The notes under the pieces: generated by a model
What the model saw: the letters and a program-made list of their open reading frames with translations, nothing else
The model's database searches: none
What the model was told of the DNA's origin: nothing
Assembly (NCBI GenBank): GCA_016196885.1
Contig: JACPWU010000020.1
Span: 64,650-96,649, forward strand
Reading direction: 5' to 3'
Origin: Chlamydiota bacterium
GTDB lineage: Bacteria; Auribacterota; JACPWU01
Length of the DNA stretch: 32,000 nt
Translations under genes and position numbers: made by a program
Shown here: positions 25,030-29,883 of the stretch, in pieces
Numbering within the stretch: the first letter of the stretch is position 1
How the letters are laid out: the number at the start of each line of letters is the position of its first letter

Positions 25030-25332
25030 CCCCAAGGACAGAGATAGAAAATGAGAACTCAAGAGCGACAGCTTGGCCCAGATGGACTTGAAGAAAACGT
25101 AGGCACACTCGCGACCGAGTTCGGGTACCCGCTTGCGGGTGAACGAGGAAGTGGTTGGAGCCCGTCAGGCGGAAACCATAGGGTACGTCGTTTCCTAAGG
25201 AAAAGAAACATCTACTAGCGCAGTCGGCCCTTTTTCTGCCTCAGGCAGCGGGCCTCCTTTACTGGCGTTTCTGAAAGTCCAGATGGGCCAAGATGTTGCG
25301 TCGAATTCCATTTTCTATCTCTGTCCTTGGGG
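25030..25332. repeat. 303-nt highly structured element closed by a perfect 24-bp inverted repeat; either MITE-like or a large ncRNA
   Basis: CCCCAAGGACAGAGATAGAAAATG (25030-25053) is the exact reverse complement of 25309-25332. A second tier pairs TTGGCCC..GGACTT with AAGTCC..GGGCCAA. The interior contains the 25112-25179 motif plus GTTTC..GAAAC and GGCCC..CTGCC-TCA-GGCAG..GGGCC hairpins. Confidence 0.7.
25112..25179 (+). ncRNA. Candidate structured RNA motif, copy 1; strand tentative
   Basis: CGACCGAGTTCGGGTACCCGCTTGCGGGTGAACGAGGAAGTGGTTGGAGCCCGTCAGGCGGAAACCAT. It is near-identical to 29301-29369 except in the two hairpin loops and 4 other positions. Plus-sense reading gives a G-U pair and a G-A/A-G internal loop. 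Confidence 0.4.
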
Positions 25333-26477: not shown

Positions 26478-27437
26478 TTATTTTTTGTCTATCTTTAGTA
26501 AAATTTGTTCGACCTCCCTTTTTAAGGAATCTGTTTTAGCATACTTCAAGAATTTTGTAAAATAAGCCTTTGCCTTTTCAGGATCTCTATTTTTATAGAC
26601 CTTCCCTAATTTAAAATAAGCCAGAAAAAATTTAGGATCCAACTTCAAAGCCTCTTCATAATGGCGAATAGCCTCGTCTGTCATTTCCTTCAAGAGATAG
26701 GCATCCCCCAAATTATCCTCCACGAATGGATTCTTAGGATCTAAATCTTTGGCTTTGTTCAAATTAATAATAGCAAAATTAGGCTCTCTTTTCTGAACAT
26801 AAGCGTTTCCCAAATTGTTCAGGACATAAGCCAATTTAGGCTCAATCTCTAAGGCCTGGTTATACTCGCGAATGGCATCGTCAAAGCGCTCCAATTGGGT
26901 ATAGGCATTCCCTAAATTGTTATACCCATAAGCCGAATCTGAATCCAGCTCTGAGGCCTTTTTAAAATTTTCTGCGGCCTTTTCGAAATTACCCTGACCA
27001 TAATAGGCGTTTCCTAAATTGGCATAGGCCGGTCCAAATTTTTCGTCGCAATGAATCGCCTGTAAATATTCATAAATGGCTGCGTCCAATTTTCCCTTTC
27101 CCTCATAAAGCACTCCCAGATTGTTATGGACCACCGCCACATTCGGGTCCACCTGGACGGCCCCTTCATAAGCCTTGATCGCCTCTGTCTTCATGTTCAA
27201 CTGCTCATAAACACGGCCCAAATTATAATGGGCCCAGACCTGTCCAGGATAAACATTAATAGCCTTCTTATATTCCTTAACCGCCTGAAGATATTTTTCC
27301 TTTTCATAAAAGGTGTTGCCTCGCTCGACAATTCGACTCGCCTTTTCATAAAGGCCCTTCGCCTCGGGCGAAAGCTCAGAAGAAAAAGCCTGCACACTGA
27401 TGAGAAACATAACCAAAAGAAGGATACGAGCCATCAT
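26478..27437 (-). CDS. Secreted TPR-repeat protein
   Basis: Signal peptide MMARILLLVMFLISVQAFS followed by 8-9 canonical TPRs (A..Y..AL...P....A..NLG.AY). The ATG at 27437 overlaps the upstream stop (ATGA). Confidence 0.8.
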   Translation of the reverse strand: MMARILLLVMFLISVQAFSSELSPEAKGLYEKASRIVERGNTFYEKEKYLQAVKEYKKAINVYPGQVWAHYNLGRVYEQLNMKTEAIKAYEGAVQVDPNVAVVHNNLGVLYEGKGKLDAAIYEYLQAIHCDEKFGPAYANLGNAYYGQGNFEKAAENFKKASELDSDSAYGYNNLGNAYTQLERFDDAIREYNQALEIEPKLAYVLNNLGNAYVQKREPNFAIINLNKAKDLDPKNPFVEDNLGDAYLLKEMTDEAIRHYEEALKLDPKFFLAYFKLGKVYKNRDPEKAKAYFTKFLKYAKTDSLKREVEQILLKIDKK

Positions 27438-28723
27438 TTCTTTTCTCTTTCCTGAATCTGACTTAAAATTTTCGATGCCCACTCTCCGGAAGACCGGCTT
27501 GGAAATTGTCTCTTCAAATCCTCGAGAACCTTCTTCGCCTCATCCACTTTCCCCAAGGCCAACTCACTCAAGGAAAGGCAATAAAGGGCCTTGTCTTTAT
27601 TTTCAAAATCAGGATATTGGGCCAAAAGCTCTTTCAAAATATCTTTGGATTTCAAATAAGCCTTCACCTTTCCATAACTGTACCCCAAATACAGCATAAG
27701 CTGAGGAGTTTTTCTCCCTTCCTCTAAAAGACCTTCCAAAAGACGAATGGCCTCATCAAAAGATTCGTTGTCTAAATATTGATTGATCAAAACCCATTTC
27801 TGAAAAAGAGGGTCCTCCCCTTTTTTGGGCTCGGGCTTGTCGTATTCTTTCATTTTATTCAGCAACGTTTCAAAATCAGTCAAACCATCCAGACGATCTA
27901 AAATTTCTCCCTTAGAATTCAAAAAAAGGACAGTCGGGACCCCTTGAACAAAATATTTTTCGGAGATTTCTGAAACAGCCTTGGGATTTAACTTCACAGA
28001 AATAAAATTTTTTGCTTCTTCAATCATTTCTGGCTGTGTCAACACTTGATCTAGGAGAGCACGGCAGGCAAGAGCACTGGGAATCTGAAAAATCACCAAA
28101 AGATTTTTTTCTATGGAAGAATGCGTCGCGTCCGGTTGAACCGCTGCCATGTTCAAGACCTCCGCTAAATCATGATACCACCTGATGCGACTCTCCAACT
28201 TTTCAAGAGATTCCTGGGCAGCACGGCGAACATCCGAGCGCTCATCCCCCTGGGCTGCCTTTTCAAGAATAGGTTTTGCTCTCGGATCTGCGAGCTTGCC
28301 CAAAGAAAAGACGGCGGCCCATCGCACTTCCCAATTCTCATCCTGAGTTAAATCCATCAAAACCTTAAAAGAACTTTCCCCACAGCCTAAAAGACCTAGA
28401 CCCACCGCTCCCAACCTTCTTTGTTCAACACTCGAAGACAAAACCAATTGATTAAAAAATTCTTCCGTTCTCTGATCACCCATTTCAGCCAAGGCCTCAG
28501 CCGCAGCGTGGCGTACACTCATGGCAGGATCATGGATAAGGGCCTCGAGATCGGGAGCGCTCGCTGGATCGGCCAACTCCCCCAAAGCCACAACGGCCTC
28601 ATAGCGCACATCCTCACTCGGATCATGCAATTGTACAAGATCATCCTCCAGCTCCGAGGCCAAAACAACTCCCGGAAAATAAATGACGCTCCAAAATAAA
28701 ATAAGCCTACTCAACCATTTCAT
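27434..28723 (-). CDS. Secreted HEAT-repeat / thioredoxin-like-fold / TPR fusion protein
   Basis: Signal peptide. PBS-lyase-type HEAT repeats (DPSEDVRYEAVVALGELAD, DPAMSVRHAAAEALAEMGD, ENWEVRWAAVFSLGKLAD, SDVRRAAQESL). Thioredoxin-like segment ...VQGVPTVLFLNSKGEILDRLDG with only one Cys and no CxxC. C-terminal TPRs. Confidence 0.7.
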   Translation of the reverse strand: MKWLSRLILFWSVIYFPGVVLASELEDDLVQLHDPSEDVRYEAVVALGELADPASAPDLEALIHDPAMSVRHAAAEALAEMGDQRTEEFFNQLVLSSSVEQRRLGAVGLGLLGCGESSFKVLMDLTQDENWEVRWAAVFSLGKLADPRAKPILEKAAQGDERSDVRRAAQESLEKLESRIRWYHDLAEVLNMAAVQPDATHSSIEKNLLVIFQIPSALACRALLDQVLTQPEMIEEAKNFISVKLNPKAVSEISEKYFVQGVPTVLFLNSKGEILDRLDGLTDFETLLNKMKEYDKPEPKKGEDPLFQKWVLINQYLDNESFDEAIRLLEGLLEEGRKTPQLMLYLGYSYGKVKAYLKSKDILKELLAQYPDFENKDKALYCLSLSELALGKVDEAKKVLEDLKRQFPSRSSGEWASKILSQIQEREKK

Positions 28724-29027
28724 GAATCCACCTCAAATATTTTGAATCGCCTTCCTGAATAGGAAGGGCAATGACTTCTGGGACTTCATAACTGTGATTC
28801 TTCAAAATAAAACGCCGAACACGTTCAAAATTTTTCTCATTTGTCTTCATGAAAATCAAATGCTCTTTTTCAGAACAGACCTTTCCTTTCCAGACGAAAT
28901 GAGACTCAACAAAGCCTAAAATATTTGCACAAGCAATATGCTTTTCTTTAAGAAGACCCTGAGTCAAAAATCTTGCCTCTTTTAAAGAAGGCGCCGTCGT
29001 TAGAATCAGGACGAAACGCTCCCTCAT
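28707..29027 (-). CDS. cutA: Divalent-cation tolerance protein CutA
   Basis: 106 aa, with IACANI...S.F.WKGKV...E..L..KT and YEVPEVIALPI motifs. Confidence 0.88.
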   Translation of the reverse strand: MRERFVLILTTAPSLKEARFLTQGLLKEKHIACANILGFVESHFVWKGKVCSEKEHLIFMKTNEKNFERVRRFILKNHSYEVPEVIALPIQEGDSKYLRWIHEMVE

Positions 29028-29245
29028 GGATTCCCCATTTCAAGCCGATTTTTATGTCTCGGCAGTTGATCAAAAGAAGTCACCTGATTAGGATCATTTT
29101 CCCATCCCGGATTATAATCCATCGAGGGATTAAAATCCTGAGACTTTGCACAACTGATAAAGGAGAGGAAAGAGAAAAAAACAACGAAAAGCATTGGAAA
29201 TTTTTTACGTACAGAACTTAAGCGAACGGCTGATCTATAACTCAT
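29024..29245 (-). CDS. Small putative lipoprotein
   Basis: MSYRSAVRLSSVRKKFPMLFVVFFSFLSFISC with lipobox-like FISC. The 4-nt ATGA overlap with cutA suggests coupling. The track ORF start at 29419 would read through the RNA-like element, so I use the ATG at 29245. Confidence 0.5.
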   Translation of the reverse strand: MSYRSAVRLSSVRKKFPMLFVVFFSFLSFISCAKSQDFNPSMDYNPGWENDPNQVTSFDQLPRHKNRLEMGNP

Positions 29246-29291
29246 AACCCCCCATAGCCTCTGGATTATCTTAAGAGCTTCCCACCGCCAT

Positions 29292-29378
29292 CCCCCCCTT
29301 ACGACCGAGTCCGGGTACCCGCCGCAGCGGGTGGACGAGGAAGTGGTTGTAGCCAAGAGGCGAAAACCATTAAGGGGG
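29292..29378 (+). ncRNA. Candidate structured RNA motif, copy 2, with a 9-bp closing stem; strand tentative
   Basis: CCCCCCTTA (29292-29300) pairs with TAAGGGGGG (29370-29378). Hairpin ACCCGC-CGCA-GCGGGT. Hairpin GTGGTT-GTA-GCC-AAGA-GGC-GAA-AACCAT. See 25112-25179 for the paralogue. Confidence 0.45.
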
Positions 29379-29405
29379 GAGAGGGGGGTTACTTCCTTAA
29401 AAACC

Positions 29406-29774
29406 TCAACCTCTTTCAATCCCCATTTTTTGGGTCAGCCAATCATAAATCACCTTGGCAGGAGTTTTCTCCACCTCTTCTTCGGCATACAGCAAAGTGA
29501 CAACCCCTTTCAAGGCCTCATCTGCCAGGTCGCAGAGTTGTACCTTTTTGTCGGCTGCCTCTAACTCTTTCAAATAATTTTCTCGAAACTTTAGACCTAG
29601 ATTGGGATGTTCTCTGGACCACTCCAAAAGCGCATAAGAAGGAGCCAAATCCTTTAGCCATCGCCGAATCTTCATCGTATAAAGATCGGCCTCCCGAGGC
29701 CAAAGCCTTTCGATCAAAATCCTCTGCCCATCTTCTTCTAAAGGCATGTCATAAAGATTTTTTAATTTTAACAT
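29406..29774 (-). CDS. DUF488 (YeaO-like) family protein
   Basis: From the ATG at 29774: MLKLKNLYDMPLEEDGQRILIERLWPR...WLKDLAPS...VTLLYAEEE, matching the DUF488 pattern. The track ORF start at 29906 extends through the upstream palindrome and is rejected. Confidence 0.72.
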   Translation of the reverse strand: MLKLKNLYDMPLEEDGQRILIERLWPREADLYTMKIRRWLKDLAPSYALLEWSREHPNLGLKFRENYLKELEAADKKVQLCDLADEALKGVVTLLYAEEEVEKTPAKVIYDWLTQKMGIERG

Positions 29775-29829: not shown

Positions 29830-29883
29830 GTCATCCCAAGGACCCAGCCCTTTGTTAACAAAGGGCTGGGTCCTCGGGATGAC
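29830..29883 (-). terminator. 54-nt near-perfect palindrome (GTCATCCC...GGGATGAC), terminator-like, after the L,D-transpeptidase gene
   Basis: GTCATCCCAAGGACCCAGCCCTTTGTT / AACAAAGGGCTGGGTCCTCGGGATGAC, with one mismatch that becomes a G-U pair only in minus-sense RNA. A U-rich run (GUUGUUUUU) follows about 9 nt downstream on the minus strand. Confidence 0.6.

Follow-up and report, generated by a model that had tools for sequence, protein, structure and literature searches.

Two copies of a new structured-RNA family, possibly solo cores of RtT-like tRNA-linked repeats, in spacers of a conserved bacterial gene cluster

Since 1991 RtT RNA has stood as a curiosity of the tRNA operons of enterobacteria, and to our knowledge it has no settled function. 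RtT RNAs are reported to be released from the transcripts of tyrT and other tRNA operons in the course of tRNA processing (PMC4986893; PMC3318445) and to be detectable as RNAs in Pasteurellaceae (PMC4986893). Reading the E. coli tyrT-tyrV-rttR region directly, we found four units of the form GGGGAAGG-(A/G)UGAGAA(C/G)C-UUCGACCAAGGUUCGA-(67 nucleotides, nt)-AAUCCUUCCCCCACCACCA. All four combine a 5' strand that complements the tRNA-Tyr T-stem (3' strand) and acceptor with a GAGAAC module and GGUUCGA, and continue with an insert after T-loop A58 and then the tRNA 3' end with CCA. Here we describe a ~70-nt element that is present in two copies, A and B, in a 32,000-nt stretch of a genome labelled Chlamydiota bacterium (contig JACPWU010000020.1, positions 64,650–96,649; hereafter the window), and compare it with RtT and other described repeats and RNAs. 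The two copies belong to what covariation marks as a well-supported new structured-RNA family, with 16 covarying pairs in ~60 sequences. Our leading reading, held with moderate confidence, is that they are solo copies of the conserved core found within RtT-like, tRNA-linked repeat RNAs, dispersed and strand-specific.

An earlier note on this DNA, made from its letters alone, had described a duplicated ~70-nt RNA-like motif with conserved blocks that aligns end to end. We confirmed this, with the two copies lying as follows (loci elsewhere are given by our own handles, L plus a number):

25111..25178, plus strand: conserved core of copy A; 72.1 bits with covariance model R1, E~1e-14; J1/2 nCGA, linker AAG
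25115..25148, plus strand: helix 2 of copy A; CC/GG, tandem G.A (GA/GA), GUUC/GAAC, 5' bulge GGGU, ACCCG-CUUG-CGGGU
25152..25178, plus strand: helix 3 of copy A; UGGUU/AACCA, 3x3 loop GGA/GGA, GCC-CGUCA-GGC
29301..29369, plus strand: conserved core of copy B; 80.7 bits with R1, E~1e-16; helix 2 at 29305-29340, helix 3 at 29344-29369
29293..29301, plus strand: 5' strand of the closing helix P1 of copy B, CCCCCCUUA; pairs with 29371-29379, duplex -28.7 kcal/mol
29371..29379, plus strand: 3' strand of the closing helix P1 of copy B, UAAGGGGGG; partner of 29293-29301

The R1 model that scores A and B was trained on family members from other organisms, and an unfiltered R1 scan of the window revealed no third copy, all else scoring ≤10.8 bits. 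The copies have three long blocks in common. Their apical loops are wholly different, as the note had it (CUUG in A versus CGCA in B; CGUCA versus AAGA), and the 3x3 internal loop keeps its flanks and changes in the middle (GGA/GGA in A, GUA/GAA in B). Helix 2 contains a compensatory change, not pointed out in the note, with one substitution per arm (T25121-A25142 in A versus C29311-G29334 in B). P1 is strong in copy B and weak in copy A, and copy B has a fold z-score of -4.5 on the plus strand. The cores are 64–65% GC, compared with 44% for the window. A and B are 85% identical to each other, and each is 87–88% identical to the L009 copy from another organism; because the A–B pair is no closer than either is to L009, the sequence comparison argues that the two copies are not a recent local duplication. 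Together with abundant compensatory changes in 60-odd homologues, this bears out the note's proposal of selection on structure.

Homologues were collected with a central 22-mer in reference genomes and, in metagenomes, with a pattern built mainly on the 5' half of the motif. The reference genomes yielded three full-length homologues, in metagenome-assembled genomes labelled Pseudomonadota, Elusimicrobia and Deltaproteobacteria, and seven further matches that were chance similarities in coding sequence. All 62 metagenomic loci (~52 non-redundant) carried the complete motif. A model scan of the same contigs added copies, bringing the total to 58 strong matches of 49–95 bits, along with weak, diverged relatives beside strong ones. 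The distribution is patchy and wide, under several phylum-level labels, and copies can be multiple, with two in the window and three on one 252-kb contig. In all, the family has at least 58 copies in metagenomes and metagenome-assembled genomes.

The motif had also been matched to no known family, and our searches agree: Rfam 15 profiles gave nothing at the gathering score across the whole window and only noise at E≤10 at both window loci and at the family loci. No known self-cleaving ribozyme family appeared at E≤10 on the window loci, nor any in the family-locus scans. ARAGORN called no tRNA or tmRNA in the window, and its calls elsewhere cover the adjoining intact tRNAs, never the motif. 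A text search of the literature found no description of the element or its core sequence. We rejected a phage or plasmid origin, since viral contigs and phages contained zero family matches and plasmid BLAST matches reached only 13–16 bits with the model. A protein-coding reading was also rejected: an antisense 'TTTSSST' peptide recurs, but the frame is a different one in copy A, and the loop lengths are not divisible by three.

The core consists of two irregular hairpins, joined in some copies by P1 as a third, closing helix. In the family alignment J1/2 has the consensus nCGA and the linker between helix 2 and helix 3 reads AAG. Helix 2 follows CCGAGnnC...GnnCGAGG with tandem G.A pairs, an invariant 5' bulge GGGN and a tip of variable length (nCCCnn...nnGGGU), and helix 3 is made of 4–6 variable pairs, a 3x3 loop GNA/GRA, 3–4 further pairs and a mostly GNRA loop; several of these 'invariant' positions were set by the search patterns used to collect the sequences. 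Across a 65-sequence alignment, 97.7% of cells can pair, compared with 34–49% when the partners are slid by 1–3 columns. Both sides change at 16 of the 21 pairs, and none of 500 shuffles reached the observed values. The seed alignment likewise shows compensatory covariation. P1, whose sequence is arbitrary, is found in about a third to half of the copies and is strong in only about a third, and it is enriched overall (Mann-Whitney p~1e-3 versus flanks swapped between loci).

Wobble pairs indicate the strand. G.U plus U.G pairs number 50, versus 5 for A.C plus C.A; without the closing pair of helix 3 the counts are 18 versus 5. That closing pair, the next inward of the terminal pair, is U.G in 32, U-A in 19 and C-G in 4 of 62 sequences. 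This asymmetry assigns the predicted fold to the plus strand of the window. The plus-sense orientation favoured by the earlier note is upheld by this count and by the shared sense of all 15 copies close to a co-oriented tRNA (see below), and the terminal G-U pair of helix 3, which it had invoked, is not conserved in the family. Diverged or reduced relatives of 23–28 bits stand in tandem with canonical copies at L018 1758-1906, L014 2165-2227, L043 374-438 and L068 6371-6426. Some lack the GGGN bulge or the outer part of helix 3, and at L018 a response-regulator gene has its start codon at the motif-like AUGACCGAG.

About a quarter of the copies adjoin co-oriented tRNA genes. At 15 loci a co-oriented tRNA lies within ~90 nt, mostly upstream, and the sense is shared in 15 of 15. 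An exact or near-exact copy of the adjoining tRNA, 10–22 nt or longer and running from the T-loop toward or past the 3' end (24/27 identical in L068), was present at 12 of the 17 tRNA loci. This 3' flank begins ≤2 nt from the 3' end of the core, and on the other side the flank closes with the 5' strand of the T-stem and TTC or TTCGA. The junctions in the T-loop are clean, between positions 56/57 or 58/59, with no target duplication. L023 is a mirror case: its 5' side is identical to tRNA-Arg positions 17–57 (41/41), and the intact tRNA-Arg lies 42 nt downstream. Several units carry a 5' module of (G/A)UGAGAAC(C/U), a hairpin, 1–2 nt and (G)GUUC(GA). Of 50 copies, 9 have GAGAAC ≤60 nt upstream, where 0.64 would be expected (P~1e-8), seven of them at -28 to -31. 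Terminators stand 3' of several tRNA-linked copies, and in L013 the order is intact tRNA with a group I intron, terminator, module, core, truncated tRNA 3' repeat and full repeat. The residence of many members in the T-loops of tRNA-gene fragments, as RtT-like units, is a feature that the earlier note missed.

Three smaller points concern these loci. The intron of L013 (179-497; RF00028, 86 bits) interrupts the anticodon loop of the tRNA immediately 5' of the motif-bearing unit. In L019, L031 and L037 the partial tRNA copy with the motif encodes CCA, versus only CA at that place in the adjoining intact tRNA gene, which fits different origins for the 3' end of the intact gene and the displaced copy. 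We also considered an archaeal-type bulge-helix-bulge intron in the T-loop and rejected it, as the junctions lack that motif and the hosts are bacterial.

The tRNA-linked members have the parts of an RtT unit in the same order. In both, a G-rich 5' strand pairs with copied tRNA sequence (T-stem 3' strand and acceptor), and (A/G)UGAGAAC is followed by a hairpin closed by GAACC/GGUUC, with GGUUC(GA) forming the T-stem 5' strand and T-loop. In both, a structured insert of 65–70 nt sits in the T-loop and the unit ends as tRNA from the T-loop to CCA, located 3' of tRNA genes on the same strand and sometimes in tandem. The RtT model RF00391, whose cut-off is 45 bits, scores the E. coli units at 133–138 bits and the best family unit (L055 880-1023) at 22.7 bits. 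In L055 both ends align and the outer helix covaries (GGGAAGG/CCUUCCC versus GGUGGG/CCCACC), with the interior skipped. On the window loci RF00391 gave no match even at E≤10, and R1 scored the E. coli units at ≤5.6 bits. The RtT insert and the new core show significant local similarity only in copies with a helix 3 of the ACCC-GAA-GCGC type (L037, z=5.1; L059, z=3.4), and none in the window copies. We rejected direct homology of insert and core on this basis, with similarity significant in few copies and not in the window's. The unit architecture is common to RtT and the tRNA-linked members, with homology of the cores unproven. Unlike RtT, the new core is found under labels such as Elusimicrobia, Deltaproteobacteria and Pseudomonadota and also as solo copies without a tRNA; the window contains no tRNA gene, and the flanks of its two copies are not derived from tRNA. 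In the E. coli K-12 region that we read (L082, 1287066-1287622), the RtT sequence GAACCUU-CGACC-AAGGUUC can fold into a hairpin with a perfect stem of 7 bp, a counterpart of the one closed by GAACC...GGUUC in the metagenomic module; the Rfam consensus pairs these bases otherwise.

The window copies lie in a gene cluster that is conserved in relatives, and the relatives lack the element. The genes around the copies are all on the minus strand and comprise folD, genes for an SH3-domain protein, TPR and HEAT/thioredoxin-like proteins, cutA, a lipoprotein-like open reading frame (ORF), DUF488, YkuD and DoxX; both copies run antisense to all of them. Beyond this cluster the window carries ordinary chromosomal genes (dnaE, guaA, exbBD/tonB, uvrA, smc). 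Three relatives, whose FolD is only 65–69% identical to that of the window, keep the order YkuD-DUF488-(small ORF)-CutA-HEAT/Trx-329 aa-49 aa-SH3-FolD (aa, amino acids). The model found zero matches across 42.8 kb of these three relatives (L076-L080). Their SH3-folD spacers measure -4, 70 and 47 nt versus 368 nt in the window, and their spacers between DUF488 and the small ORF measure 9 and 3 nt (L078, L079) versus ~160 nt. The enlarged spacers contain the following features:

25030..25332, no strand assigned: inverted-repeat-bounded segment with copy A, 303 bp, filling nearly the whole SH3-folD spacer
29246..29405, no strand assigned: spacer holding copy B, from DUF488 to the small lipoprotein-like ORF (both minus strand), ~160 nt

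Because the relatives have the same gene order without the element and far shorter spacers, the comparison places both copies within lineage-specific insertions in the spacers of a conserved cluster, on the opposite strand and with no tRNA context. The 303-bp segment is essentially all of the extra DNA of the SH3-folD spacer. Its outer arms (25030-25053/25309-25332, 24 nt) are 100% complementary and its inner arms (25065-25096/25268-25299) 81%, such that the 24-nt perfect inverted repeat extends imperfectly to ~67 nt. Among the family copies, long flanking repeats are seen at copy A only, and we rejected a MITE, a miniature inverted-repeat transposable element, with terminal inverted repeats on that ground. 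Directly after the 24-nt outer arm, at 25051-25058 and -58 from copy A, stands ATGAGAAC, with no GGTTC; it may be a vestige of the GAGAAC module, a weak suggestion from the sequence. Copy B has no GAGAAC-type module. That the element is dispersed and insertion-like, with empty orthologous sites in relatives, had not been recognised in the earlier note.

Within the same insertion as copy A, each repeat arm contains AAGGA-N12-ATG, opening ORFs of 55 and 38 aa (25051-25218, plus strand; 25195-25311, minus strand) that converge on the motif. Their predicted products are mutually unrelated, and the ORFs are probably not coding. A nested hairpin, GGCCC-TTTTT-CTGCC-TCA-GGCAG-C-GGGCC, lies 3' of the motif at 25215-25255 and was not called by the terminator scan. 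A minus-strand riboswitch linked to folD, of the THF or ZTP type, was rejected on the strand asymmetry, the Rfam negatives and the absence of the motif upstream of the relatives' folD. Any contribution of the copies to the control of folD or cutA is probably small or nil.

Around the family as a whole, the ORFs found first downstream on the same strand are a varied set of housekeeping genes, and for many copies there is no such ORF. The copies have no uniform orientation to the long ORFs beside them, and no protein family within 3 kb recurs in more than two loci. An intercistronic cassette is shared by about 14 closely related copies and begins 2–20 nt past the upstream stop codon. In it, P1 (CUCCCCUUU/AAAGGGGAG) surrounds the core and two G/C-rich hairpins follow, the last of which buries AAGGAGG 5–15 nt before a same-strand ATG. 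Both orientations of the middle hairpin are found, in two subgroups. Reverse-complemented, the last hairpin of one subgroup gives the P1 of the other, which holds the core in its loop. On this reading, the core would be lodged in a REP-like palindrome's loop, as part of a mosaic built of palindromic units. Separately, 3' of the motif in L039, L052, L027 and L040 we observed REP-like palindromes (CCCCTCCTTACAAAGGAGGGG, CCTCCCCTTACAAAGGGGAGG) with extra sequence in their own loops, and insertions in these genomes seem to favour hairpin loops generally.

We propose that the element is a low-copy dispersed insertion and not a locus-specific regulator. It lands in intergenic spacers, typically inside the apical loop of a pre-existing hairpin, which in tRNA-linked members is the T-loop of a partial copy of the adjoining tRNA. 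Such units run from an outer helix through the GAGAAC-hairpin-GGUUC module and the core to a tRNA 3' end with or without CCA. They would be co-transcribed with the tRNAs, and the tRNA-like 3' end could let tRNA-processing enzymes release a stable small RNA. Selection would maintain the conserved fold, either for the element's own propagation or for binding of a conserved cellular partner. The element is better described as the core of an RtT-like, tRNA-associated dispersed repeat than as a locus-specific antisense RNA gene. The antisense transcription that the note mildly favoured was not established: we recognised no sigma-70 promoter or intrinsic terminator at either window copy.

Those missing signals also weigh against our proposal, as do several other observations. 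No transposase, integrase or reverse transcriptase is linked to the element in the family loci or the window. The relatives are only 65–69% identical in FolD, a distance at which loss in all three could also have emptied their sites. The hairpin that sequesters a Shine-Dalgarno sequence upstream of genes in the cassette subgroup looks regulatory. About 35 core positions are near-invariant across phylum labels, part of this being imposed by the search patterns; conservation of this kind is seldom seen in selfish repeats and is in line with a conserved molecular function (ligand, protein or catalysis). Finally, an RtT-type mechanism would reach the window copies, which have no tRNA flanks, only by analogy. 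The finding suggests that the RtT architecture extends well beyond Gammaproteobacteria, with a different and much more conserved core that can exist alone as a dispersed insertion. The new family can enter RNA-family libraries, and annotators should not take its copies for regulators of adjoining folD or cutA genes. It also raises the question of how a 70-nt element without a protein gene comes to sit precisely in hairpin loops.

Of the competing explanations, the one that survives best, which we nonetheless judge unlikely, is that the element works as a small RNA with biochemistry of its own, its most plausible forms being a self-cleaving ribozyme of a new class and an RNA docking onto a conserved partner (for example a processing enzyme or the 3' end of a tRNA). 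Dispersal would then be secondary, as is the dispersed, insertion-like distribution of bacterial hammerhead, twister and related ribozymes. The element is small and has the look of such an RNA, with a three-way junction, a conserved unpaired GGGN bulge, CGA and AAGU strands, tandem G.A pairs, a U.G wobble favoured at the base of helix 3 and peripheral stems of variable length. Its patchy cross-phylum spread, with several copies per contig in variable orientation and tRNA loci and island-like DNA nearby, is in keeping with this. However, none of the Rfam 15 ribozyme families is similar even at E≤10, nearly half of the copies have no convincing closing helix, and no candidate cleavage site can be inferred. 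Pairing of the fourth base of the bulge with the discriminator base of the adjoining tRNA-like tail was rejected, as five units compared by eye showed no covariation.

The conserved structure could instead be that of single-stranded DNA, serving as the recognition hairpins of a non-autonomous transposable element moved in trans by an HUH/Y1-type or similar enzyme, with hairpin loops (T-arm DNA, REP-like palindromes) as its targets. Tandem G.A pairs and GAA/GNRA-type loops are also stable in DNA, and literal GCGAAGC hairpins occur among the copies. This doubtful explanation would account for the clean insertions at T-loop positions 56/57 or 58/59 and in palindrome loops without target duplication, for the strand-specific conservation and for the empty orthologous sites. 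However, a transposase is never adjacent, and the left boundary has no conserved target motif. All 15 tRNA-linked copies follow the tRNA sense and all cassette copies the sense of the flanking genes, which fits transcription. In the window, the copies lie opposite the strand of nearly all genes. RtT, the close architectural parallel, is reported as an RNA released from tRNA operon transcripts (PMC4986893).

A bolder extension, to which we give about as little credence as to the DNA element, would make the core the active portion of small RNAs borne on tRNA fragments, a widespread and unrecognised class in which enterobacterial RtT would be one divergent branch. Its junction and GGGN bulge might self-cleave or ligate, or dock tRNA 3' ends or processing enzymes, and the element would home to hairpin loops without encoding a protein. 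An activity of the core, on RNA or single-stranded DNA, would if real also explain the precise nesting in T-loops and other hairpin loops.

Less probable still is a cis-regulatory RNA acting on a downstream gene, be it a riboswitch that senses a global signal or a leader that binds a protein. The family has the covarying, aptamer-like fold of riboswitches, and the cassette described above, in which ~14 copies place P1 and two G/C-rich hairpins before an ATG whose AAGGAGG is buried by the last, resembles an expression platform; L002, L015, L016 and L061 also have a start codon within ~30 nt. However, the platform-like hairpins occur in both orientations, as REP palindromes do. A riboswitch lies in the same-strand 5' untranslated region of related genes, whereas here the downstream genes have no common function and are often absent, the orientation is mixed, both window copies are antisense to all their neighbours, and relatives run the same operon without the element.

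The HK022 put RNAs are likewise ~70 nt long, with two adjacent stem-loops and two related copies per genome (PMC9378689), and terminators do follow several tRNA-linked copies, but it is hardly credible that the element acts in the manner of putL and putR, binding RNA polymerase during transcription and so suppressing termination, because there is no sequence or structure match (best score 9 bits for unfiltered R1 on the HK022 genome), viral contigs and phages are empty of the family, and the window copies have no phage context, upstream promoter or same-strand downstream operon.

Two classes of DNA repeat resemble the element in part. Like REP/BIME, ERIC, BOX and Correia-type repeats ('mobile/repeat sequence candidates', PMC11109978), it is multi-copy, lies in intergenic or intercistronic spacers, has no consistent orientation to genes, is absent from relatives' orthologous sites and forms mosaics with other palindromic units. 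REP sequences, however, are species-specific simple palindromes, whereas the element has a complex two-hairpin fold with ~35 near-invariant positions across phylum-level lineages, and unlike a MITE it has no general terminal inverted repeats, target duplications or linked transposase. The direct 3'-end repeats beside an intact tRNA recall the tRNA fragments left by integrative elements (PMC9897764); in L068 the repeat lies 4.9 kb from the tRNA, bracketing accessory-type genes and adjoining an IS66 transposase. Unlike those fragments, the family repeat has its start exactly within the T-loop, with a conserved folded element before it, and the 'island' is mostly 20–200 bp with no integrase. The idea that the element is the end of a larger mobile element was also rejected, as no neighbour protein recurs and the island-like genes of L068 include no integrase.

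Elsewhere in the window cluster we noted several further features. A near-perfect palindrome of 54 nt (27+27 nt, 96%) occupies 29830-29883. The DUF488 ORF is 166 aa long; because its Pfam domain starts only at residue 45 and orthologues are 117–118 aa, the palindrome probably lies in the YkuD-DUF488 spacer, which is 18–111 nt in relatives versus ~158 nt in the window, and it may be another lineage-specific hairpin insertion in the cluster. An unannotated ORF at 29024-29245 (minus strand), between DUF488 and cutA, begins with a lipoprotein-like signal peptide (MSYRSAVRLSSVRKKFPMLFVVFFSFLSFISC...); ORFs of 70–80 aa occupy this place in L078 and L079. Its G-run ribosome-binding site is complementary, on the mRNA strand, to a C-run beyond copy B. 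At 29413-29448 (minus strand), in the 3' end of the DUF488 gene, a single sequence ending in AUUGAAAG weakly resembles CRISPR-DR47 (19.7 bits, E=0.31), likely by chance. Five direct repeats at 26595-27026, spaced by 102 nt, correspond to the 34-residue TPR units of the TPR gene (26478-27482, minus strand).

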